Source of the DNA: an uncultured Chromatiaceae bacterium
Lineage (GTDB): Bacteria; Pseudomonadota; Gammaproteobacteria; Steroidobacterales; GCA-2729495
Direction: 5' to 3'
DNA length: 37,242 nt
Assembly: GCA_964569355.1 (NCBI GenBank)
Contig: CAZMVP010000004.1
Location: forward strand, 1-37,242
The number at the start of each line of letters is the position of its first letter. Positions within the stretch are counted from its first letter, which is position 1. Under the pieces are notes generated by a model that was not told the DNA's origin, searched no databases, and saw nothing but the letters and a program-made list of their open reading frames with translations. A program made the translations under genes and the position numbers. Positions 14,209 through 24,809 of the stretch are shown piece by piece.

Positions 14209-15873
14209 TCAGCCAGCGCGTCGGGTTGCCTCCTGCGCGAAGGGCTGCCTCGAGACTGCGCTCAGCACGGCCTGCAGCGTGGCCGTGGTGGTGTCGTCGG
14301 CAAGCGCAACCCCGGCGGTGTAGTCGTCGCCGATCCGCAACCGGATGCAGGCCATGGCCTTGGCCTCGGTGCCGCTGCCGAGCGCGAATTCGTCAAAACC
14401 CTCGATGCGGCCACGCACGCCATGGGTCCGGTTGAGCGCATCCATCAGCGCTTCCACCGCACCATTGCCCTCGCCAGCCAGCGTTCCGTTGCCGACGCGC
14501 GCCTGTACCCGCACCCGGTCCGCCTCGCGGCTGACCTCGTAATTGCCCATGGTCCAGGCATCGCCGAGCGTCACGTAGGCGGCATCGAAGAGCTGGCGGA
14601 TCGCGGCGCCGCCCACTTCATCGCCCGTCTTCTCGGCATGCCGCTGCACCACCTTCGAGAATTCGATCTGCAGCCAGCGTGGCAACGTGATGCCGAAGTC
14701 GCGCTCGAGCACGTAGAGCACGCCGCCCTTGCCGGACTGGCTGTTGATGCGCACCACCTCCTCGTAGCGGCGGCCGAGGTCGCCCGGATCGATCGGCAGG
14801 TAGGCCACCTGCCAGGGTTCATCCGCCCGCTGTCGCGCCAGCGATTTCCGGATCGCATCCTGGTGGCTGCCGCTGAAGGCGGTGTACACGAGCTCGCCCG
14901 CCCAGGCATGGCGCGGGTGCGTGCTGATCTCGGTGCAGTACTCCACGGTGTCGATGACCCGCCGCATGTCCGAGAAGTCGATGCCGGGATCGATGCCCTG
15001 CGAATAGAGGTTCATGCCCATCGTCACGAGGCACATGTTGCCGGTCCGCTCGCCATTGCCGAGCAAGGTGCCCTCGATGCGGTCGGCACCAGCCAGCACG
15101 CCGAGCTCGGCCGCAGCCACGCCGCAGCCACGGTCATTGTGCGTATGCAGGCTGACGCGCACATGCTCGCGATGGTCGATGTGGGCGCACATCCATTCGA
15201 TCATGTCGGCATAGACGTTTGGCGTGGACATCTCCACCGTGGCCGGCAGGTTGATCACGACCTTCTGCCCCTTCTCCGGCTGCCAGACGGCGATCACGGC
15301 ATTGACGACTTCGGCCGCGTACTCCAGTTCCGTGCCGGTGAAGCTTTCCGGCGAGTACTGGAACTCCCAGTCGGTCTCCGGCGCCTTTGCCGCCCCTTCC
15401 TTCACCCACTTCGCGCCCTGGACCGCGATGTTGCGGATCGCGTCGCGATCCAGGCCGAATACGCGCTCGCGCTGCACGGTCGACGTGGAGTTGTAGACAT
15501 GGACGTTGGCCTTGCGCGCGCCCTTCAATGACTCGAAGCTCCGCGTGATCAGGTCTTCCCGGGCCTGGGTCAGCACCTGGATCGTCACGTCATCCGGCAC
15601 CAGTCCTTCGGTGATGATCTTGCGGACGAAATCGAAATCCGGTTGCGAGGCGGACGGAAACCCCACCTCGATCTCCTTGTAGCCCATGTCGACCAGCAGC
15701 CGGAACATCCGCGTTTTCTGTTCGATGTTCATCGGCTTGACCAGCGCCTGGTTGCCATCCCGGAGGTCGACCGAACACCAGTCCGGTGCCTTGGTGATCA
15801 CGCGGTCCGGCCACTGCCGGTCGGGCATGTGGACAGGCTTGAAGGCGGCATATTTGCGGTGGTCGTAGGCCAT
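14209..15873 (-). CDS. leuA: 2-isopropylmalate synthase (long, LeuA type 2)
   Basis: MAYDHRKYAAFKPVHMPDRQWPDRVITKAPDWCSVDLRDGNQAL... followed by HTHNDRGCGVAA. I trimmed the start to the ATG at 15873, which has GGAGAG 6 nt upstream. Confidence 0.9.
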   Translation of the reverse strand: MAYDHRKYAAFKPVHMPDRQWPDRVITKAPDWCSVDLRDGNQALVKPMNIEQKTRMFRLLVDMGYKEIEVGFPSASQPDFDFVRKIITEGLVPDDVTIQVLTQAREDLITRSFESLKGARKANVHVYNSTSTVQRERVFGLDRDAIRNIAVQGAKWVKEGAAKAPETDWEFQYSPESFTGTELEYAAEVVNAVIAVWQPEKGQKVVINLPATVEMSTPNVYADMIEWMCAHIDHREHVRVSLHTHNDRGCGVAAAELGVLAGADRIEGTLLGNGERTGNMCLVTMGMNLYSQGIDPGIDFSDMRRVIDTVEYCTEISTHPRHAWAGELVYTAFSGSHQDAIRKSLARQRADEPWQVAYLPIDPGDLGRRYEEVVRINSQSGKGGVLYVLERDFGITLPRWLQIEFSKVVQRHAEKTGDEVGGAAIRQLFDAAYVTLGDAWTMGNYEVSREADRVRVQARVGNGTLAGEGNGAVEALMDALNRTHGVRGRIEGFDEFALGSGTEAKAMACIRLRIGDDYTAGVALADDTTTATLQAVLSAVSRQPFAQEATRRAG

Positions 15874-15920
15874 GGTGGCTCTCTCCAGTTGCGTCTGCCG
15901 CAAAGTCTAGCCGTTACGGA

Positions 15921-15979
15921 CCGCAATTCGCTTGCGTTTATCCCGCAATTGGGCATTGGGACGATATTTTATTGCGTTA
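15921..15979. promoter_or_regulatory. Candidate operator region with repeated CGCAAT/ATTGCG half-sites in the leuA-lrp divergent intergenic region
   Basis: CCGCAATT occurs at 15921-15928 and 15943-15950, 22 bp apart. The inverted ATTGCG occurs at 15971-15976. The segment is locally AT-rich. Its function is inferred only from position. Confidence 0.25.
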
Positions 15980-16006
15980 CTTCAGTCATTCTGGCATTTT
16001 CCCGCC

Positions 16007-16486
16007 ATGAATATTGCCACGCTTGACCGGATCGACCACCGGATCCTCGATGTCCTGCAGCACGACGGCGGCCTGACCAACCAGGAGCTGGCCGAACGGG
16101 TCGGCCTGTCGCCCTCGCCATGCCTGCGCCGGGTCAAGGCGCTGGAGGCGGCCGGCGTCATCGTCAAGCGCGTGGTCCTGCTCGACCCGAAGGCACTGGG
16201 ATTGTCGCTGACGGCGATCATCCACATCGTCATGGACCGCCACACGCCTGAGCGCTTCGCGCATTTCGAGGACAAGCTCAAGACCTGCCCGGAGATCCAG
16301 GCCTGCTACCTGATCACCGGCCAGGACGCGGACTACCTGCTGGTGGCCGTCGTGCCGGACATGGATGCCTACCAGGAACTGCTGCTGAAGACCATCACGC
16401 GCATCGAAGGCGTTTCCGGCGTGCATTCCAGCTTCGTGCTGCGACGGGTCATCGATACCACGGCGCTGCCACTCGCCCACCTCTGA
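16007..16486 (+). CDS. Lrp/AsnC family transcriptional regulator
   Basis: LDRIDHRILDVLQHDGGLTNQELAERVGLSPSPCLRRVKALEAAGVI (HTH) plus a C-terminal RAM/AsnC domain. I trimmed the start to the ATG at 16007. The gene is divergent from leuA. Confidence 0.85.
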   Translation: MNIATLDRIDHRILDVLQHDGGLTNQELAERVGLSPSPCLRRVKALEAAGVIVKRVVLLDPKALGLSLTAIIHIVMDRHTPERFAHFEDKLKTCPEIQACYLITGQDADYLLVAVVPDMDAYQELLLKTITRIEGVSGVHSSFVLRRVIDTTALPLAHL

Positions 16487-16646
16487 CCGGCGGCACTGCT
16501 GCTGCCCAGGCGATGGGGTTGTCCCCAAGCAGTGCGGCCATCGCCAGCACGGCAAACCCGCGGACCCATCGGTTCATGGCACGCAGCTTGCGGGATGGTT
16601 GCGTGCTTGCCAATCCGGCAGGCAGTGCCGGCGATGAAGCGAATGA

Positions 16647-16674
16647 TTGACAAGTGCGGTACGGACAATAAGAT
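16647..16674 (+). promoter_or_regulatory. Candidate sigma70 promoter for the truncated-hemoglobin/cbb3 operon
   Basis: TTGACA (16647-16652), a 16-nt spacer, then TAAGAT (16669-16674). It lies about 34 nt upstream of the ATG at 16708. GGGGA sits 6 nt before the ATG. Confidence 0.4.
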
Positions 16675-16707
16675 ACGCGCCCGATACACCTTCTTCGGGG
16701 ACCTCCC

Positions 16708-17124
16708 ATGACCGCCGACGAGATCTGCAGCGAGGCAGACATCACCGCACTCGTCCACGATTTTTATGCCCGGATCCGGGACGATGCGAAGCTCGGCCCG
16801 ATCTTCGACCGGCACATCGCCGACTGGCCGCATCATCTCGCGAAGATGGTCGACTTCTGGTCATCGACCCTGCGCGGCACGCGCCGCTACCACGGCATGC
16901 CCATGCCGGCCCACGTGGCGCTGCCGGGACTTGACCAGGACCTGTTCCGGCAGTGGCTGTCACTCTTCCATGAAACCACGGCAGCCCACCCGAACCAGGC
17001 CATGGCCGAACGGGCCGACCTGCTCGCCGAGCGCATTGCGCAGAGCCTCTGGTACGGTTACGACATGCACCACAACCAGCTGACGCAAAGCTGGCCGCTT
17101 GAAGCACAAACAGGAGTTGGCTGA
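16708..17124 (+). CDS. Group III truncated hemoglobin (2-on-2 globin)
   Basis: The 138-aa protein reads ITALVHDFYARIRDDAKLGPIF...WPHHLAKMVDFWSS.L.G...Y.G.P...H. The size and motifs fit the trHb III (Ctb-like) family. Confidence 0.8.
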   Translation: MTADEICSEADITALVHDFYARIRDDAKLGPIFDRHIADWPHHLAKMVDFWSSTLRGTRRYHGMPMPAHVALPGLDQDLFRQWLSLFHETTAAHPNQAMAERADLLAERIAQSLWYGYDMHHNQLTQSWPLEAQTGVG

Positions 17125-18770
17125 TGGATAGCGCGGTATTGAGCCTGCTGGGAGCCTTCCTGCTGTCCGTCATCGGACTGTTCGTCTTCATCTGGTCGAT
17201 GCGCAAGGGATTGCTCTCGGAGAATGCCGGAGCGGCATCCGTCATCTTCGCCGAAGGCGAGATCGGCCGGGTCGATGACCCGGCCCTGGGCGAAGCCGCG
17301 CAGGAGAATTTCCAGGCGGCCGTGGCACCGGAGACCACGGAACCACCAGCCAACGAAGCCGAGCTGGTCGACCGGATCGAGGCGGATCGCTCCACGGCAT
17401 TCCCGGTCTTCATGTTCATCGCCTTTGCCTGTTTCTGGCTGCTGGTCGGCTCGGCAGCGGGACTCATTGCCTCGATCAAGCTCCACGCGCCGGACTGGCT
17501 CGTCAACGACGCCTGGCTGACCTTCGGCCGGATCCGCACCGAGCACCTCAACGCCGTGATCTACGGCTGGTCGTCCAACGGCTGCCTGGCCGTGATCATG
17601 TGGCTGCTGCCGCGGCTCATGCGGACGCGGCTCGTCGGCGCGATCTGGGTCATGCTGGGCGGCACCTTCCTCAACGCCGGCATCGCAGCGGGCATCGGCG
17701 CCATCGCCTCGGGCTGGACCGACGGCATGGAGTTCCTGGAGATCCCCTGGCAGATCGGCGTCTTCATCTTCGCCGGCTTCGGCCTGATCGTGCTGCCACT
17801 GCTGCTGACGGTCTTCCGGCGCAACGTGGAACACATCTATGTCAGCGCCTGGTACATGGTGGCGGGCCTCTTGTGGATCTCGCTCTTGTTCGTCGTGGCC
17901 AAGCTCCCGGGCGTGCACACCGGCGTGCAGCAGGCAACGACGAACTGGTGGTATGGCCACAATGCGCTGGGGCTGTGGTTCACGCCGGTCAGCGTGGGCG
18001 CCATCTACTACTTCCTGCCGAAGATCATCGGACGGCCGATCGTGTCCTACAACGTGTCGCTGCTCGGCTTCTGGTCGCTCGCGTTCTTCTACGGCCAGGT
18101 CGGCGGCCACCACCTGATCGGCGGACCCATTCCCGGCTGGCTCATCACCCTGTCGATCGTGCAGAGCGTGATGATGGTCATCCCGGTGGTTGCGTTCGCG
18201 ATCAACCAGGGTGGCACGATCTGGGGCCACATCCGCTTCGTGCGCTATTCCCCGACGCTGCGCTTCATGGTGGCCGGCGGCCTGATGTACTGCCTGTCCT
18301 CGGTGCAGGGGTCGATGGAAGCCCTGCGCAGCGTCAACGCGGTCACCCACTTCACGCACTACACCGTGGCCCATGCCCACCTCGGCATGTACGCCTTCGT
18401 CGCGATGGTGCTGTTCGGCGCCATCTACTTCATGATGCCGCGCGTGCTGGACTGGGAATGGCCCTATCCGAAGCTGATCTCGCTGCATTTCTGGCTGGTC
18501 ACGATCGGCATCACGATCTACGTCGTGTCGCTGACGATCGGTGGCTGGCTGCAGGGCAAGGCCATGCTCGACCCCGACCAGCCGTTCATCGAATCGGTGC
18601 TGTTGACCCTGCCGTACCTCAAGGCACGCAGCATCGGTGGCACGATCATGACGCTCGGCCACCTCGTGTTCGTCGGTCATTTCTTTGCGATGGCGCTGCG
18701 CTTCGGGCCGCAACGCACCGGCGCCGCGCTGTTCTGGCAGCCGGCCGCGGAGGGCAATCATGGAAAGTGA
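17124..18770 (+). CDS. ccoN: cbb3-type (C-family) heme-copper oxidase subunit I with a CcoS/FixS-like N-terminal extension
   Basis: WWYGHNALGLWF, the FFYGQVGGHHL motif (Tyr five residues before HH) and THFTHYTVAHAHLG match the CcoN metal-ligand pattern. The first ~45 aa (LLSVIGLFVFIWSMRKGLLSENAGAASVIF) resemble CcoS. The ATG overlaps the globin stop (TGATG), and AGGAG lies 7 nt upstream. Confidence 0.85.
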   Translation: MDSAVLSLLGAFLLSVIGLFVFIWSMRKGLLSENAGAASVIFAEGEIGRVDDPALGEAAQENFQAAVAPETTEPPANEAELVDRIEADRSTAFPVFMFIAFACFWLLVGSAAGLIASIKLHAPDWLVNDAWLTFGRIRTEHLNAVIYGWSSNGCLAVIMWLLPRLMRTRLVGAIWVMLGGTFLNAGIAAGIGAIASGWTDGMEFLEIPWQIGVFIFAGFGLIVLPLLLTVFRRNVEHIYVSAWYMVAGLLWISLLFVVAKLPGVHTGVQQATTNWWYGHNALGLWFTPVSVGAIYYFLPKIIGRPIVSYNVSLLGFWSLAFFYGQVGGHHLIGGPIPGWLITLSIVQSVMMVIPVVAFAINQGGTIWGHIRFVRYSPTLRFMVAGGLMYCLSSVQGSMEALRSVNAVTHFTHYTVAHAHLGMYAFVAMVLFGAIYFMMPRVLDWEWPYPKLISLHFWLVTIGITIYVVSLTIGGWLQGKAMLDPDQPFIESVLLTLPYLKARSIGGTIMTLGHLVFVGHFFAMALRFGPQRTGAALFWQPAAEGNHGK

Positions 18771-19419
18771 AGTCAAGCTGATCACCGGCGCACTCGTCAC
18801 GCTCGGCGTGGCCACCGCGGCGCTGGTCGTCATGCCCTACATCCAGGTCCGGGACGTCAAGCCACCCGAGGGCCTGAAGCCCTACACGAGCGCGGAGCTG
18901 CGCGGGCGGGAGGTCTACATCTCCGAGGGCTGCGTGTACTGCCACAGCCAGCAGCCACGCGACCGGTCCATGGGTCCGGATGCCAGCCGCGGCTGGGGCC
19001 GGCCATCGGTGCCGGGCGACTACTACTATGACCGCCCGCACCAGCTCGGCAGCATGCGTACCGGGCCTGACCTCTTCAATATCGGCGCGCGCCAGCCCAG
19101 CAAGGACTGGCAGCTCGGCCACCTCTACCAGCCCCGGGCCTATTCGCCCGGATCGACGATGCCGGCCTATCCCTACCTGTTCACCATCGAGGATGAGCTC
19201 GCCGATGGCGACGAGGCGGTGAACCTGCCACCGGGGTACGCGCCGGAAGGCAAGTACGTCGTGGCCACGCCGAGGGCGCTCGACCTCGTGCGCTACCTCC
19301 AGGGGATGGACCATACCTATCCGATCCTGCCCGCGGCGCCCGTGGCAGGGCCCGCGGCAGCGGATGGGTCCGAAGCGGCAACCGGACCCGAAGCCGCAAC
19401 CGCAGAAGGGACGCTGTGA
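18760..19419 (+). CDS. ccoO: cbb3-type oxidase subunit II (monoheme CcoO/FixO)
   Basis: N-terminal TM segment, then YISEGCVYCHSQQPR and GSMRTGPDLFNIG...W...HLY.PR...PGS.MPAYPYLF. I trimmed the start to the ATG at 18760, with GGAGGG upstream. The gene overlaps ccoN by 11 nt. Confidence 0.85.
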   Translation: MESEVKLITGALVTLGVATAALVVMPYIQVRDVKPPEGLKPYTSAELRGREVYISEGCVYCHSQQPRDRSMGPDASRGWGRPSVPGDYYYDRPHQLGSMRTGPDLFNIGARQPSKDWQLGHLYQPRAYSPGSTMPAYPYLFTIEDELADGDEAVNLPPGYAPEGKYVVATPRALDLVRYLQGMDHTYPILPAAPVAGPAAADGSEAATGPEAATAEGTL

Positions 19420-20045
19420 TGCTCGATGAACGCACCAAGCCCACCAAGGCGCAGCAGCGCGAGCATGCCGAGCCCTCCGAAGGCCTGAAGCCGGTACCGG
19501 TGGTCGTGTTGCTCGCCACGCTGGCACTCGTGCTGTTCGGTGCCGGCTACATCTTCGTTTCCGAGCCCTTTGGCCGGGCTGACCTGGGCGACCAGCGCAC
19601 GCTGGCCGACCTCAGGGCGAAGCCGGCAGCGGCAGCCGGCACCGCCGCAGCCAGCGTGGACGGGGCGCAGGTCTACACGGCCAACTGCGTCGCCTGCCAC
19701 CAGGCAAGCGGCAAGGGCCTGCCAGGCGTCTTCCCGAACCTCGACGGCTCCGACTGGGTTGCCAGGGATCCCCGTGTCATCATCAATATCCTGCTCCACG
19801 GCATCACGGGCCAGATGACGGTCAATGGCGCGGTGTACAACGGCGCGATGCCGGCCTTCGGCCACCTAGGCGACGCGGAGCTGGCCGCCGTGGCGAGCCA
19901 TGTACGGTCGGCGTGGTCCAACAAACTGCCGCCGGTAGCGCCGGAAACCGTCGCCGAGGTCCGCAAGGACCAGTCCCGGACCACGCCGTTTGCCGGTGAA
20001 GCCGAGCTCGAGGCTATGCTGAAGTCGCTGGCACCGGCTCCTTGA
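19419..20045 (+). CDS. Membrane-anchored monoheme c-type cytochrome (stands where the diheme CcoP would be)
   Basis: TM segment VVVLLATLALVLFGAGYIFV, a single CVACH heme site, and GAMPAFG as the probable Met ligand. The ATG overlaps the ccoO stop (GTGATG). Confidence 0.75.
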   Translation: MLDERTKPTKAQQREHAEPSEGLKPVPVVVLLATLALVLFGAGYIFVSEPFGRADLGDQRTLADLRAKPAAAAGTAAASVDGAQVYTANCVACHQASGKGLPGVFPNLDGSDWVARDPRVIINILLHGITGQMTVNGAVYNGAMPAFGHLGDAELAAVASHVRSAWSNKLPPVAPETVAEVRKDQSRTTPFAGEAELEAMLKSLAPAP

Positions 20046-20090
20046 GCAGGGCATGAAGGCCGGCGCGACATCCGGCAGCGAGGGCTCGCG

Positions 20091-20555
20091 ATGCGCCTGA
20101 CGATGATGACGGACTACGCGCTGCGCCTGCTCATGTACGTGGGCCAGCGACCTGACCAGTTGTGCACCATCGCGGAAGTCGCCGGGGCCCACGGCATTTC
20201 CGAAGCACACCTGATGAAGATCACGCACCAGCTGGCCCTGCACGGCTGGCTGGAAACCATCCGCGGCCGCGGCGGCGGCATGCGTCTTGCGACCACGCCG
20301 GACAAGGTCAACATTGGTGCCGTGGTGCGTCGCATGGAACCGGATTTCCAGCTCGTGGAATGCCTGGCCCGGGACACCTGCGCGCTGGCGGGCCACTGCA
20401 ATCTCACCCCCATCGTCGAAGAGGCACTCGAACTCTTCATGGCGCACCTGGACCGGCACACGCTGGCCGACCTGCTGCCCGGCATCCCGATCGACCTGCG
20501 CGCGCAACGAAAGGATCCGACGTCGGGCGGCGGCAACTCGACGCGCAGTCGCTGA
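20091..20555 (+). CDS. nsrR: Rrf2-family transcriptional regulator, NsrR-like
   Basis: MRLTMMTDYALRLLMYVG....TIAEVA...GISEAHLMKI...L...G (wHTH), followed by three Cys spaced as C-x7-C-x5-C (ECLARDTCALAGHC). This is the Fe-S ligand pattern of NsrR-type Rrf2 proteins. The symbol is tentative. Confidence 0.75.
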   Translation: MRLTMMTDYALRLLMYVGQRPDQLCTIAEVAGAHGISEAHLMKITHQLALHGWLETIRGRGGGMRLATTPDKVNIGAVVRRMEPDFQLVECLARDTCALAGHCNLTPIVEEALELFMAHLDRHTLADLLPGIPIDLRAQRKDPTSGGGNSTRSR

Positions 20556-21187
20556 TGGGCCGGACCCTGGTCGCCTGCGCCGCATTCCTGGTCCTCGCGA
20601 TCGGCGCGGCACGGTGGTTGACGCTCGATTTCAACATCTGGACTGCCGAAGGCGCGCGCCGCTTCGAGGTGGCGAGCGCACCGGTTGCCGCACCCGAGGT
20701 CACGCTGGACGGACCCGACCTCCGCGACATGCGGCTGCCCGAGGTCCTGTCCACGAACCGGGCGGTGACGATCGTCGATTTCATCTACACCAGTTGCCAG
20801 ACCGTCTGCCAGGTGCTGGGTACCGGCTTCCAGCAACTGCAGGCGCGCATCGGCAATGATCCACGGCTGAAGCAGCGCGTCCGCCTGCTGTCGATCAGCT
20901 TCGATCCGGCCCGCGATACCCCGGACGTGCTGCGCGACCATGCCGACCACCTCGGCGCCGACCCGGCCATCTGGACCTTCGCGCGGGTCGCCGACCAGCG
21001 GCAGCTGGCCACGCTGCTCGACCGCTTCAACGTGGTCGTGATTCCGGATGGCCAGGGTGGCTATGCGCACAACGCCGCCTTGCTCGTTGTCGACCGGGAC
21101 GCGCGGCTGGTGCGGATCTTCGACTACTCGGAACTCGACACGGCGCTGGCCTATGCCGTGCGACTGGCGAATCGGCAGGTCTCCTGA
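20555..21187 (+). CDS. SCO1/SenC family copper chaperone / thiol-disulfide protein
   Basis: N-terminal TM anchor, FIYTSCQTVCQ (the CxxxC motif), LLSISFDPARDTP, and YAHNAALLVVD (the conserved His). The ATG overlaps the nsrR stop (TGATG). Confidence 0.8.
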   Translation: MGRTLVACAAFLVLAIGAARWLTLDFNIWTAEGARRFEVASAPVAAPEVTLDGPDLRDMRLPEVLSTNRAVTIVDFIYTSCQTVCQVLGTGFQQLQARIGNDPRLKQRVRLLSISFDPARDTPDVLRDHADHLGADPAIWTFARVADQRQLATLLDRFNVVVIPDGQGGYAHNAALLVVDRDARLVRIFDYSELDTALAYAVRLANRQVS

Positions 21188-21792
21188 TGACGAGCAGCCG
21201 GATGCATCGATTCGCCGCCCTCACCGCGTTGGCCGCACTGGCCGCGCTCCTGGTGCTGGTGTTGCCGCCGGTGCGGCTGGCCATGGAAGCCAGCATGAGC
21301 CGACACATGCTGTTGCAGTTCCCGGCGCTCCTCGCCATCGGCTGGTTGCTGGCCGGCACGCTGCCGGTCCGGTGGCGCACCGCGCTCGGCCCATGGAACC
21401 ACCTCGGCATCAGCGGGCTCATGGCCGCTGCCCTGATCCTCGGCATCGGCATGATTCCCCGGGTGCTGGATCTGGCGCTGGTGGACTGGCGGATCGAGGC
21501 CATCAAGTTCGTCGCCCTGCTGTCCTGCGGCGCCGCAATCCGGCTGTCATGGTCGGCCGGCGGCCTGGTGGTGCAGGGCTTCTTCCTCGGCAACCTGTTG
21601 TGGATGACCGCGGTCGTCGGTCTCCTGTACCAGGACTCGCCCGAGCGGCTGTGCAATGCCTACCGGCTGGATGACCAGCAGTGGCTGGGAATGTGGCTCG
21701 TGGGCATCTCGGTCGCCATCGGCACGACCTGGCTGGTCCGCGCGTTCCGAGGACGGCAAGTGGGGCATGAGCCGGACACATTGACGCCCTGA
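21187..21792 (+). CDS. Polytopic membrane protein, possibly a CtaG-like oxidase assembly factor
   Basis: About five hydrophobic segments. SRHMLLQFPALLAIGWLLAG is reminiscent of caa3-CtaG-type proteins. The ATG overlaps the SCO stop (TGATG). The functional call is weak. Confidence 0.5.
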   Translation: MTSSRMHRFAALTALAALAALLVLVLPPVRLAMEASMSRHMLLQFPALLAIGWLLAGTLPVRWRTALGPWNHLGISGLMAAALILGIGMIPRVLDLALVDWRIEAIKFVALLSCGAAIRLSWSAGGLVVQGFFLGNLLWMTAVVGLLYQDSPERLCNAYRLDDQQWLGMWLVGISVAIGTTWLVRAFRGRQVGHEPDTLTP

Positions 21793-21993
21793 TGTCGGCG
21801 AGCTGATCCGCACCATCGGCGCGCGCTCGATCGGTCTGCCGAGGCACTACCGCCGGCCGGCTCGATCCTTCGCCTTATGTTCAGTCGGACTCGGATGACC
21901 AATGCTGAGGCAATATCTGCCATCAGGCTGCTCGAACCGTCGGCCGTGCCTGGCAGGACGACGGCCCCGCTCATCCGAAACAGGAAGTGAAAA

Positions 21994-23121
21994 ATGACAA
22001 GAATCATCCTGATTGCACTACTGCTCCCCGCGTCATTCAGTGCTGCCGCCGCCAGCTTTACACCATTGGGAGACCTGGCCGGCGGCACCTTTGCCAGCGG
22101 GGCCACGGATATCTCCGGTAACGGCACGATCGTCGTCGGCAACAGCAGCACGGCCGCCGGCACCCGCGCGTTCATCTGGACTGCCAGTACCGGCATGGTG
22201 GAGATGGCGGCGGCCAACGGCATTACCCCAACCGTGGCGAATGCCATATCAGGCGATGGCACGGTGATCGTCGGCAGCTCCGGCTACTCCCTGAGTTGGC
22301 GTTGGTCCAGCGCGAGCGGCTTCCAGCCATTGGTGCCCGTGGCCGGCGAGACGGGGACCGCAACGAGTTCCGTATCCTACGACGGCAGTGTCGTGGGTGG
22401 CTCAAGCATTAATCCCTTCCCGCGCGCTGTCATCTGGACGGCACCGACGACCCCGGATCCATTGGGCATACCCATTGAAAGCAGCGTCCACGGCGTGTCA
22501 GCCGACGGCCTGGTGGCGGTGGGCGGTGGGCAACGAGACAACGTCGCATTCCGCTGGTCTGAAACGGATGGCATCACCTATCTGGGGGACCTGCCCGGCG
22601 GCAACACTTCCGCTGTCGCCATGGCCACCTCCGGCGATGGCAGCATCGTCGTGGGCAGATCCAGCTCGGCCGCCGGTGGCGAGGCATTTCGATGGACTGC
22701 CGATACCGGCATCCTTGGCCTGGGCGATCTTGCAGGCGGCATTTTCGGCAGCTCGGTCACCGATATCACGGCATCCGGCGACGTGATTGTCGGCAGTGGA
22801 TCGGACAGCAGGGGACAACAGGCTGTCCTGTGGACCACTGCCGGCGTGGAGGCCATCTTCGACCTGCTGGTAGCCCAGGGTGTGATGCTGCCCGAGGGCT
22901 GGAGACTTACCAGTGCCAAGGCCATTTCTGACGACGGTCTTGCCATTGTCGGTACCGGCGTCAATCCCGATGGCTTTGTTGAAGGGTGGATAGCGCAGCT
23001 GGACCCCTACATCGTGCCGTTGCCGGCATCCATCTGGCTGTTCATCTCCTCACTCTCCGCCTTGGCGGGGCTTCGCCTTCGCAGCATCGGCCGCGCGACA
23101 GCCACTGCCAGCCACCGGTGA
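21994..23121 (+). CDS. HAF-repeat extracellular protein with a VPLPA-CTERM (PEP-CTERM variant) sorting signal
   Basis: Signal peptide MTRIILIALLLPASFSAAAA. Repeated G.A.AISGDG..VVG....G...AF.W motifs are present (ATDISGNGTIVVG, NAISGDGTVIVG, HGVSADGLVAVG, ATSGDGSIVVG, TDITASGDVIVG, AISDDGLAIVG). The C-terminus (23014-23118) is VPLPASIWLFISSLSALAGLRLRS. AGGAAG lies upstream of the ATG. Confidence 0.8.
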   Translation: MTRIILIALLLPASFSAAAASFTPLGDLAGGTFASGATDISGNGTIVVGNSSTAAGTRAFIWTASTGMVEMAAANGITPTVANAISGDGTVIVGSSGYSLSWRWSSASGFQPLVPVAGETGTATSSVSYDGSVVGGSSINPFPRAVIWTAPTTPDPLGIPIESSVHGVSADGLVAVGGGQRDNVAFRWSETDGITYLGDLPGGNTSAVAMATSGDGSIVVGRSSSAAGGEAFRWTADTGILGLGDLAGGIFGSSVTDITASGDVIVGSGSDSRGQQAVLWTTAGVEAIFDLLVAQGVMLPEGWRLTSAKAISDDGLAIVGTGVNPDGFVEGWIAQLDPYIVPLPASIWLFISSLSALAGLRLRSIGRATATASHR

Positions 23122-23129
23122 CCACGCCG

Positions 23130-23207
23130 GTGGTGCCGGGGCACCTTCTTGGTAAGTGGTGCCGGGGCACCTTCTTGGTAAGTGGTGCCGGGGCACTTTC
23201 TTGGTAA
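23130..23207. repeat. 3 x 26-bp tandem repeat, GTGGTGCCGGGGCACCTTCTTGGTAA. Each unit carries the inverted repeat GGTGC-CGGG-GCACC.
   Basis: Read directly: 23130-23155 and 23156-23181 are identical, and 23182-23207 has one mismatch (C to T at 23197). The period is 26, not a multiple of 3. It lies 9 nt after the HAF gene's stop and 33 nt before the next ATG. Confidence 0.9.
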
Positions 23208-23239
23208 CCTGTCGCCGACGACAGCAGCGGTGACCTGCC

Positions 23240-23845
23240 ATGCCTGACACACCCGAAGCCGCCGGCCACGCCGGCCCGACGCCACTGGCCTCCGCGACCT
23301 GGGACGGCACGCTCGAAGCCGACACGCTCGAAGCCGACACACCCGAGTTCAACCGCACGGAAATTGAACAGCTCCGCATGCGGATCATCGCGCTGGAAAG
23401 CCTCGTGATGTCGCTGTTCGCCGCGGGCAGCAACCGGCAACATGATCTGGCCCGAGAGATGTCCATGTACATCGCGCCGCGGCCCGGGTTCACGCCGCAC
23501 GCATTGACCCTGCGTGCCGGCAAGCACATGAACAACCTGCTGGAGCGCGCCAGCACGATCCGCGACGAGATGCCTTCGACCAAACCGTACCGCCGCACGC
23601 GGATCTTCGACGAAGGAACGCTGCCCGCGAGCCTGCGTCGCGAGCATCGCACCAAGGCCGGCATCTGGGCCGTGATCCGCATCCTCGACGGCCGCGTGCG
23701 CTTCCGCATCAAGGAGCCGGAATCGGTCGCGATCCTGGAACCCGGCCGTCCGGGACTTGTGCAGCCCGAACAGCCGCATGTCGTCGAGCCGCTCGGGCCG
23801 GTGCGCCTGCGGCTGGAGTTCTATCGCCAGCAGCCCGAGCTGTGA
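23240..23845 (+). CDS. DUF1971 (YeaR/TehB-C-like) domain protein with an uncharacterised ~115-aa N-terminal extension
   Basis: The C-terminal part reads YRRTRIFDEGTLPASLRREHRTKAGIWAVIRILDGRVRF....EPGRPGLVQPEQPHVVEP.GPVRLRLEFY, matching the DUF1971 beta-barrel domain. The N-terminus holds an in-frame 2 x 15-bp repeat (23309-23338, TLEAD TLEAD). Confidence 0.7.
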   Translation: MPDTPEAAGHAGPTPLASATWDGTLEADTLEADTPEFNRTEIEQLRMRIIALESLVMSLFAAGSNRQHDLAREMSMYIAPRPGFTPHALTLRAGKHMNNLLERASTIRDEMPSTKPYRRTRIFDEGTLPASLRREHRTKAGIWAVIRILDGRVRFRIKEPESVAILEPGRPGLVQPEQPHVVEPLGPVRLRLEFYRQQPEL

Positions 23846-23861
23846 TCCGGCGGAATCGATC

Positions 23862-24809
23862 GTGAGGCTGCTGCCCCTCCTCGGCATCGACCTGCCGATC
23901 GTCCAGGCGCCGATCGGCAGCGCGGCAAGCCCCGCACTGGCGGCCGCGGTGGCCAACGCCGGCGGACTCGGCACGCTGTCGATCAGCTGGTCAACGGAGG
24001 CACAGATCCGCCGGATGATCCAGGCCACGCGGGCACTGACGCAGAGGCCGTTTGCGGTCAACCTCGTGCTGGAATGGCCCCAGGAGGAGCGGCTTGAGGT
24101 TGCCCTCGACGAGGGTGTCCGGCTCGTATCCACTTTCTGCGGCAATCCCGCTGCCAGCATCCGGGCCGTGCATGAGGCTGGCGGCCTGCTGATGCACACG
24201 ATCGGTTCACTGGATGATGCCGCGGCGGCGATCGCGGCCGGCGCCGACATCATCGTGATCCAGGGCGTCGAGGCCGGCGGCCACGTCTGCACGGATATCC
24301 CGCTGATGCGCCTGATCGGGCAGATCCGCGCCGCCTTTCCCGATGCGCCGCTGGTTGCCGCCGGTGGCCTGGCCGATGCGGCCGATGTGGCGGCAGTGCT
24401 CGACGCCGGTGCCGACGCAGCGTGGCTCGGCACGCGCTTTGTCTGCTCGGTTGAAGCCAATGCGGCGACCCTGTACCAGCAGAAGATCATCGAGGCCTAC
24501 GCCGATGACACCGTGATGACCACGGCCTTCTCGCTTGGCTGGCCTGATTCCCCGCACCGGGTGATCCGCAACAGCACGGTGCGCATGGCCGCCGATGCGC
24601 CGGCAAACCGCGCCGCGGGAAGCGCACCGGAAATCGTGGCACACTCCAGGCGCGGCACGCCGATCGAGCGCTATGCGTTCGGCATACCCACCCGCGACAT
24701 GACAGGAGATCTCGAAGCGATGGCACTGTACGCCGGCTGCAGCGTGGAGAAGATCCATGACGTCAGGCCCGCGGCCGACCTCGTGCGGTCGCTCTCGGGA
24801 GTGCGCTGA
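23862..24809 (+). CDS. Nitronate monooxygenase / NAD(P)H-dependent flavin oxidoreductase (NMO family)
   Basis: LLGIDLPIVQAPIGSAASPALAAAVANAGGLGTLS, then IIVIQGVEAGGH, then VAAGGLADA....VLDAGADAAWLGTRF. The GTG start at 23862 is chosen because the upstream part of the track ORF overlaps the previous gene. Confidence 0.8.
   Translation: MRLLPLLGIDLPIVQAPIGSAASPALAAAVANAGGLGTLSISWSTEAQIRRMIQATRALTQRPFAVNLVLEWPQEERLEVALDEGVRLVSTFCGNPAASIRAVHEAGGLLMHTIGSLDDAAAAIAAGADIIVIQGVEAGGHVCTDIPLMRLIGQIRAAFPDAPLVAAGGLADAADVAAVLDAGADAAWLGTRFVCSVEANAATLYQQKIIEAYADDTVMTTAFSLGWPDSPHRVIRNSTVRMAADAPANRAAGSAPEIVAHSRRGTPIERYAFGIPTRDMTGDLEAMALYAGCSVEKIHDVRPAADLVRSLSGVR

Follow-up and report, generated by a model that had tools for sequence, protein, structure and literature searches.

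A putatively NsrR-repressed operon for a divergent, auxiliary cbb3-type cytochrome c oxidase and a group III truncated haemoglobin

The stretch of DNA analysed here (the window: positions 1 to 37,242 of contig CAZMVP010000004.1, assembly GCA_964569355.1, from an uncultured Chromatiaceae bacterium) carries, from position 16,647 to position 21,792, a promoter and seven genes. These are best explained as an operon that is repressed by an NsrR-type protein and encodes an auxiliary C-family (cbb3-type) cytochrome c oxidase of three subunits, together with copper-insertion factors, a coupled group III truncated haemoglobin and the repressor itself. We put the probability of this reading at about 0.72. 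An earlier note on this DNA, made from the sequence alone, had described the gene order and junctions and linked the operon to nitrosative stress. Its architecture was borne out by searches of the open reading frames (ORFs) against Pfam and curated profiles: seven ORFs of the same direction (+ strand, 16708-21792) lie downstream of a TTGACA-16-TAAGAT promoter, with 1-nt TGATG overlaps at four junctions (haemoglobin/ccoN, ccoO/cytochrome c, Rrf2/SCO1 and SCO1/membrane protein), an 11-nt overlap between ccoN and ccoO and a 45-nt gap 5' of the Rrf2 gene. All seven ORFs are intact and the coupling junctions are kept. Gene calls made by others on further contigs with an identical CcoN protein agree with this layout, and place the start of the monohaem cytochrome c at the ATG at 19419.

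What is new here is a 23-bp palindrome of the NsrR type, AAGATACGCGCCCGATACACCTT, that sits on the operon promoter and recurs across related loci. The palindrome is built on an 11-1-11 plan; its outer pentamers pair with a single mismatch, and its left inner half is degenerate. The promoter is the single sigma-70-like match in positions 15800-22200 (6.4 kb), where 0.7 matches would be expected by chance; as this is the level found in shuffled sequence, the consensus match alone carries no weight, and what weight there is comes from conservation. When the window is aligned with its closest counterparts (G040, L008 and L009/G010), the -35 and -10 hexamers prove to be invariant and the flanking DNA diverges. 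The left part of the box is also invariant in the window, G040, L008 and L009, and orthologous boxes lie 37 nt 5' of the haemoglobin gene in L008 and L009.

The same architecture is seen well beyond these close relatives. In 46 of the 67 loci that could be evaluated, these being the loci with enough upstream DNA, the pattern AAGAT-N13-ATCTT is located directly 5' of the gene that opens the cluster, and its presence follows that of the regulator gene: 32 of 33 loci with an embedded Rrf2 gene have the box, compared with 14 of 34 loci without. AAGAT-N13-ATCTT corresponds to the published NsrR motif with two bases added on each side, the NsrR consensus being gATGyAT-N5-ATrCATc (PMC1274295). In Acinetobacter baumannii, the NsrR box is AAGATGTATTTTAAATACATCT and deletion of nsrR derepresses its target about 10,000-fold (PMC11836069). 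A search for FNR/Anr boxes (TTGAT-N4-ATCAA, with up to two mismatches) found none 5' of the window operon and next to none in the loci that lack the NsrR-type box.

The outer-pentamer pattern alone occurs 47 times in the window's own genome, mostly in coding DNA, and for this reason the site was judged by its conservation and with a position matrix. A matrix derived from 46 boxes of other loci puts the window site in 8th place among the 2.27 million positions of the genome. Of the seven sites that score higher, four are in coding DNA, whilst the remaining three are found 5' of a DUF2249 operon, of norC and of a gene for a membrane protein. DUF2249 and norCB are typical NO-response genes, NO being nitric oxide. 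The genome's best-scoring box, a perfect extended palindrome (AAAAGATGTATCGAGCTTACATCTTTT; contig C56, L095:5446-5472), is found 25 nt 5' of the DUF2249 gene (Pfam E 3e-27), which is followed in the same operon (L095:3557-5420, - strand) by genes for a 205-aa protein and a 296-aa membrane protein, both without Pfam matches. The second-best box (AATACGTATTCTACAGGTATCTT; contig C46:10235-10257, L004) is placed just behind a cytochrome b561-like gene and 86 nt 5' of norC in a norCB pair. On contig C225 (1337-1359), an AT-rich NsrR-like box, AAAGTCAATATAATTGACATCTT, immediately precedes the gene for a 184-aa membrane protein to which no family was assigned.

The embedded Rrf2 protein has as its best solved relative the NsrR protein of Streptomyces coelicolor (5N07, E 2e-18). 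Its Cx5Cx5C motif and D8 align with Cys93, Cys99, Cys105 and Asp8 of the S. coelicolor protein, the three cysteines being those replaced by alanine in the cluster-free variant 5N08. The protein is also 67% identical to an Acidovorax Rrf2 protein that is encoded within an nnrS-rrf2-x-sirB-hmp string, directly behind which the Acidovorax copy of this oxidase cluster is located. The only other Rrf2 protein in the window's own genome is a SUF regulator that scores above its own cut-off. The alignments support the assignment of the embedded protein to the NsrR type rather than the IscR or CymR type, as had been supposed. The conserved operator, together with the presence of nnrS and hmp as neighbours in other genomes, likewise upholds the link to nitrosative stress that had been drawn from gene context.

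Subunit I is related to CcoN but is clearly not a housekeeping CcoN. It matches Pfam COX1 (274 bits) and the solved CcoN chain 3MK7_A (E 2e-59), compared with an E of only 1e-5 for solved NorB. On the CcoN equivalog TIGR00780, however, it reaches 268.5 bits against a cut-off of 583 bits, a model on which the canonical CcoN copies of relatives score 740-790 bits, and its identity to canonical CcoN is about 30%. The ligands of haem b, haem b3 and CuB, H141, H279, H329, H330, H417 and H419, align with H60, H207, H257, H258, H345 and H347 of Pseudomonas stutzeri. At the level of sequence, the cross-link tyrosine on helix VII is Y323 (P. stutzeri Tyr251), which is found in FFYGQVGGHH, six residues before the HH pair, and is invariant in 22 of 22 window-type sequences and absent in NorB. 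The same 22 aligned sequences all retain the six histidines, Tyr251, T215, Y223, S240, Y317, N333 and H337 (P. stutzeri numbering). At the position of P. stutzeri H243 the window type always has Gly, and at that of E323, which we take to be the partner of the proximal histidine of haem b3 in canonical enzymes, it has Gln or Glu. Ahead of the first canonical helix is a conserved N-terminal extension of ~90 aa with one transmembrane helix. This extension scores 15 bits on the FixS profile, below the 23-bit cut-off, and gives a weak profile-profile match to CcoS (probability 36%, E 4e-4 over 20 columns).

In a maximum-likelihood tree, window-type sequences form a clade of their own (support 92/94), parted by very long branches from the canonical CcoN clade (100/100) and from the other divergent CcoN of this genome, which is encoded on contig C7; NorB is placed outside the window-type clade. 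Given this separate clade, and given that all the histidine ligands, the tyrosine and the C-family proton-path residues are kept, the enzyme is of the oxidase type and is neither a housekeeping CcoN nor an NO reductase (NOR). The earlier note had reasoned from signature motifs that the active site was oxidase-type and had left the clade to be settled by phylogeny; the first point stands, and the second is answered in favour of a non-housekeeping enzyme, with canonical ccoN genes present elsewhere in five near-complete carrier genomes.

Contig C7 (L002:1432-3932) encodes a second divergent C-family oxidase, with a 473-aa CcoN that is 38% identical to the window protein and that also has Gln at the E323 position. 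Its gene is followed by one for a CcoO that has a cytochrome c domain fused at its C-terminus, and the locus adjoins a MATE-type transporter gene. This type of oxidase is also found in G010 and in two Burkholderiales genomes.

Could the window enzyme nevertheless be a physiological NO reductase, a C-family enzyme recruited for conversion of NO to N2O, with the truncated haemoglobin as its NO-handling partner? The operon is placed behind an NsrR-type operator and in other genomes adjoins NO-detoxification genes; moreover, the cbb3 enzyme of P. stutzeri turns NO and nitrite to N2O in vitro (PMC8780969), and the C-family contains the closest oxidase relatives of cNOR and qNOR (PMC11214002). We consider such a role quite unlikely, because the active site is fully oxidase-type, with three CuB histidines and the cross-link tyrosine but no NOR-type Glu ligand, because the proton-path residues are kept, unlike in cNOR, because the match to solved NorB is so much poorer than that to CcoN, and because the genome already has a cNOR, the norCB pair on C46. 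Membership of cNOR or qNOR themselves was rejected on the tyrosine, the channel residues, the NorB match and the position of NorB outside the clade. The new NOR families eNOR, sNOR, gNOR, nNOR and bNOR do not apply, these being B-family relatives with CuA-type subunits.

The other two oxidase subunits are a CcoO-type protein, encoded next to subunit I, and a monohaem cytochrome c that resembles one half of CcoP, with a 45-bit match to TIGR00782 that covers the first haem domain only and an N-terminal transmembrane helix. Profile searches for FixQ, FixH, FixG_C and stand-alone FixS found none in the whole 86.5%-complete metagenome-assembled genome (MAG), CcoI not being among the profiles searched; the lack of ccoQ, of a dihaem CcoP and of ccoG, ccoH and ccoS, previously remarked on for the window, thus holds with a third subunit that has a single CxxCH and, for the FixQ, FixS, FixH and FixG_C profiles, across the MAG.

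In place of these factors, the operon ends with two genes that are present in every complete related locus. The first encodes a SCO1/SenC protein that scores above the 22.8-bit cut-off (Table 1) and has both the CQTVC motif and the conserved distal histidine (YAHN). The second encodes a membrane protein whose family numbers 837 representatives at 50% identity and whose orthologues share invariant residues that include M37, M41, M89, M140 and C156, with H40 nearly invariant. Its AlphaFold2 model has a pLDDT (predicted local distance difference test) of 92, although a fold search against the PDB gave no match (best E 1.8), the PDB having no solved CtaG-like structure for comparison. The protein matches neither Pfam Caa3_CtaG (gathering threshold 27.7 bits) nor any other Pfam family, and a Caa3_CtaG search of the window's own genome gave no match either. 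Eight of 37 orthologues do match Caa3_CtaG at E 7e-4 or weaker, and a distant relative (P0250) reaches 21.4 bits, all of them below threshold; similar sub-threshold matches to DUF1404 are seen in orthologues and distant relatives. On the strength of this sub-threshold similarity to CtaG, a role for the seventh protein in copper insertion is plausible.

The first gene of the operon encodes a truncated haemoglobin (Pfam Bac_globin, 27.3 bits against a 21-bit cut-off) whose best solved relative is the group III protein Ctb of Campylobacter jejuni (2IG3, E 2e-17), with group I globins at 5e-3 or weaker. The aligned residues are presumably TyrB10, HisE7, HisF8 and TrpG8. In Polaromonas-type loci (L030, L031, L036, L037, L039 and L040), where no truncated haemoglobin gene abuts ccoN, a small ORF starting MK... 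is present ~120 nt 5' of ccoN, its stop overlapping the ccoN start via TGATG or TAATG; it could encode a leader peptide or a small subunit. As the stop/start overlap is the same without the haemoglobin, translation of ccoN seems to be coupled to whatever gene stands upstream.

Table 1. Positions of the operon features in the window and the basis of each assignment
Feature	Positions	Strand	Basis
Sigma-70-type promoter TTGACA-16-TAAGAT	16647..16674	+	Consensus scan; hexamers invariant in related genomes
NsrR-type operator AAGATACGCGCCCGATACACCTT	16670..16692	no strand	Conserved box; overlaps -10 hexamer
Group III truncated haemoglobin, 138 aa	16708..17124	+	Pfam Bac_globin; 2IG3 match
Divergent C-family haem-copper oxidase subunit I (CcoN-like), 548 aa	17124..18770	+	Pfam COX1, TIGR00780, 3MK7_A
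CcoO-type monohaem subunit II, 219 aa	18760..19419	+	Pfam FixO 127 bits; CVYCH motif
Membrane-anchored monohaem cytochrome c, 208 aa	19419..20045	+	Cytochrome_CBB3 49 bits; single CxxCH
NsrR-type Rrf2 [Fe-S] repressor (predicted), 154 aa	20091..20555	+	Pfam Rrf2 107 bits; NsrR structure 5N07
SCO1/SenC copper chaperone, 210 aa	20555..21187	+	Pfam SCO1-SenC 46.8 bits
Conserved polytopic membrane protein, 201 aa	21187..21792	+	Met/His/Cys motifs; possible remote relative of Bacillus-type CtaG

How widespread is this arrangement? A protein search for subunit I returned more than 4,600 matches, and 219 species-level genome stretches, chiefly from Burkholderiales, were confirmed to encode relatives with 71-89% identity. 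Culturable carriers include Polaromonas jejuensis NBRC 106434, Comamonas phosphati CGMCC 1.12294, Oryzisolibacter propanilivorax EPL6, Simplicispira hankyongi NY-02 and Hydrogenophaga sp. ANAO-22. In the 80 loci fetched, every contig of sufficient length shows the order ccoN-ccoO-cytochrome c-SCO1-membrane protein. By this comparison the conserved core consists of five genes, those for CcoN, CcoO, the monohaem cytochrome c, SCO1 and the membrane protein, to which the truncated haemoglobin, Rrf2, a ferredoxin and NnrS are added as variable accessories. The haemoglobin and Rrf2 genes each occur in about half of the loci or fewer. The Rrf2 gene lies between the cytochrome c and SCO1 genes in about half of the 80 loci and 5' of ccoN in a few, whilst the first gene may be a truncated haemoglobin, a 7Fe-type ferredoxin, a truncated haemoglobin followed by NnrS, or none of these. 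The earlier description of a self-contained seven-gene operon therefore needs qualifying: the seven genes are all present in the window, but what is conserved is the five-gene core, with the haemoglobin and the regulator as accessories.

The ferredoxin, of the DUF3470 type, replaces the haemoglobin as first gene in 17 of 67 loci (L025, L027, L043, L046 and L132 among them), with its gene ~450 nt 5' of ccoN; 16 of the 17 are behind an NsrR-type box.

Five near-complete carrier genomes also encode a canonical CcoN (768-790 bits), indicating that the window-type enzyme is normally an extra, auxiliary oxidase. Within the window's own genus the cluster is found in only three of 31 genomes: G000, which is the MAG that contains the window, G040 and G010. 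Canonical ccoN and ccoS were not found in G000 (86.5% complete) or in G010 (about 80% complete), both of them incomplete assemblies, and ccoQ, ccoH and ccoG were not found in G000. Such absences would be expected if this were instead an ordinary high-affinity microaerobic oxidase whose Rrf2 protein senses iron, Fe-S status or O2 in the manner of RirA or IscR and so matches expression to cofactor supply. That the RirA model scores the Rrf2 protein the same as the NsrR model fits this explanation too, as does the need of the enzyme for haem and copper, which are Fe-S-independent, in an operon that has copper factors. We nonetheless regard it as unlikely. The operator fits the NsrR consensus (PMC1274295) and not an IRO or IscR box, and the same box is found 5' of DUF2249 and norCB in this very genome. 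The Cx5Cx5C motif and Asp8 are as in S. coelicolor NsrR, and a close Acidovorax homologue is encoded inside the nnrS-rrf2-x-sirB-hmp string. Finally, a canonical ccoN is present besides the window type in complete carrier genomes, and the window's MAG is only 86.5% complete.

If the operon is indeed repressed by its own NsrR-type protein, we envisage the following sequence of events. When NO is not present, the [Fe-S] form of the Rrf2 protein would bind the 23-bp palindrome over the -10 hexamer and so block transcription. NO would then nitrosylate the cluster, the repressor would leave the DNA and all seven genes would be transcribed; with nsrR inside the operon, we propose that the operon is negatively autoregulated. 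The enzyme made, with its full O2-reductase active site and proton path, would most likely serve as a terminal oxidase that sustains respiration under NO, during denitrification or at oxic/anoxic interfaces, with NO consumption as a possible side reaction. The truncated haemoglobin might either oxidise NO or pass O2 to the oxidase.

Several observations weigh against this account. Twenty-one of the 67 evaluable loci have no recognisable box, and the related loci are kin, so that the box counts overstate independence. The curated NsrR model NF008240 is not reached by the Rrf2 protein (110.4 against 182 bits), and the RirA model ties with it at 110.3 bits, also below cut-off. The Acidovorax Rrf2 protein from the nnrS string behaves alike on both models, which suggests that the enterobacterial model does not cover or resolve this lineage. 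No sequence feature shows that the window enzyme tolerates NO, and canonical cbb3 is potently inhibited by NO (Arjona 2015, as cited in PMC6472365). In Sphingopyxis, too, the ccoNOQPG genes are repressed by NO (PMC6472365). NsrR-type control of a cbb3-type operon is thus counter-intuitive, and for that reason notable.

Among the four close orthologues, moreover, it is the window that has the most degenerate box: the inner 13 positions score -4.1 bits and the left inner half is poor, and repression here may therefore be weak. At its extreme, this would mean that the operator has decayed in this genome, leaving the cluster constitutive or silent and the NsrR link as an evolutionary remnant, a view to which the negative inner score and the three substitutions in the right half relative to G040, L008 and L009 lend themselves. 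The window has, however, kept both its outer pentamers and its right half-site ATACACCTT, the box still overlaps the -10 hexamer, and all seven ORFs are intact with their coupling junctions. Work by Partridge in 2009 is said to have found that NsrR of E. coli acts on single 11-bp half-sites also. On balance, decay appears very unlikely, and a functional NsrR-type operator remains the preferred explanation.

The genes that flank the operon may be described briefly. Directly 5' of the promoter is a gene for an Lrp/AsnC-family regulator (15932-16486). Lrp reportedly co-regulates the NsrR target hmpA in Vibrio vulnificus (PMC8175989). The leuA-lrp pair is kept in the genus even where the oxidase cluster is not present, however, and the adjacency may be incidental. 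On the other side, in the stretch 21994-24809, genes for a HAF-repeat/VPLPA-CTERM protein and a DUF1971 (TehB-like) protein separate the membrane-protein gene from a nitronate monooxygenase gene. In G010 (L127:8252-9802) the nitronate monooxygenase gene begins 22 nt after the membrane-protein gene, and the two intervening genes in the window consequently look like insertions into a longer ancestral string.

Comparison with known systems places the window enzyme at some distance from canonical CcoNOQP and its CcoGHIS assembly factors (P. stutzeri 3MK7, Rhodobacter). The two share the metal ligands of subunit I, the helix-VII tyrosine, the K-path analogue, a monohaem CcoO subunit and a c-type third subunit. 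They differ in that the third subunit here is monohaem rather than a dihaem CcoP, in that the operon lacks CcoQ and ccoGHIS and has SCO1 and a CtaG-like protein instead, and in the low identity, the N-terminal extension and the residues at H243 and E323 described above. Control differs also, with an FNR box in the canonical systems and an NsrR-type box on the window promoter. In Pseudomonas aeruginosa, the orphan subunits CcoN3 and CcoN4 provide alternative C-family versions of subunit I that are linked to nitrite and cyanide tolerance and to denitrifying conditions. They are, however, close paralogues of the canonical protein that swap into CcoOP, whereas the window encodes a whole separate enzyme with its own subunits, assembly factors and regulator.

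For the haemoglobin, the nearest comparison is with C. jejuni Ctb, its closest solved relative. Ctb is a group III globin that nitrosative stress induces via NssR, in an organism that respires with a cbb3-type oxidase. NssR, however, is of the Crp/Fnr type, and Ctb is not encoded in an oxidase operon, whereas in the window the stop of the haemoglobin gene overlaps the start of ccoN.

As regards control, the closest functional parallel is found in Vibrio fischeri, whose NO-insensitive alternative oxidase (AOX) is controlled by NsrR. There too a terminal oxidase is placed under an NsrR operator and is made when NO appears, according to PMC1274295 and to Dunn 2010 as cited in PMC6472365. The V. 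fischeri enzyme is a di-iron quinol oxidase that conserves no energy, in contrast to the haem-copper cytochrome c oxidase with a proton path encoded here. The operator architecture is also that of the NsrR regulons of beta- and gamma-proteobacteria (hmp, nnrS, dnrN, norB and nirK), as is true of the boxes at norCB and DUF2249 in the window's own genome. The 2005 reconstruction of the NsrR regulon does not have a cbb3-type cluster among its targets and nowhere mentions 'cbb3' or 'cytochrome c oxidase'. In the literature searched (full text, with partial coverage), we found no account of the cassette and none that places a cbb3-type oxidase under NsrR.

A bolder proposal can be made, though only tentatively, and we think it rather less probable than not. 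The window-type enzymes might constitute a distinct and widespread subfamily of C-family oxidases that is switched on by NO and, unlike canonical cbb3, is either NO-tolerant or bifunctional, reducing both O2 and NO with conservation of energy; the translationally coupled haemoglobin would then be a dedicated O2/NO partner, and a new CtaG-like/SCO1 pair would replace CcoGHIS for CuB insertion.

What might the operon mean for its carriers? Canonical cbb3 oxidases are among the most NO-sensitive of respiratory enzymes and in some bacteria are repressed by NO, whereas NO appears to relieve the repression of the cbb3-type enzyme described here. More than 200 species-level genomes share the cassette; most are from Burkholderiales, an order common in soil, freshwater and wastewater. 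It suggests a route of CuB insertion that is independent of CcoGHIS and uses SCO1 and a CtaG-like protein, and it offers a way to test genetically what group III truncated haemoglobins do, which has long been debated. If the proposed control is correct, the NsrR regulon would extend to a haem-copper oxidase, and the cassette would point to a means by which bacteria can go on conserving energy through aerobic respiration while they denitrify or are under nitrosative stress; it could also reveal a hidden sink for NO or a source of N2O.

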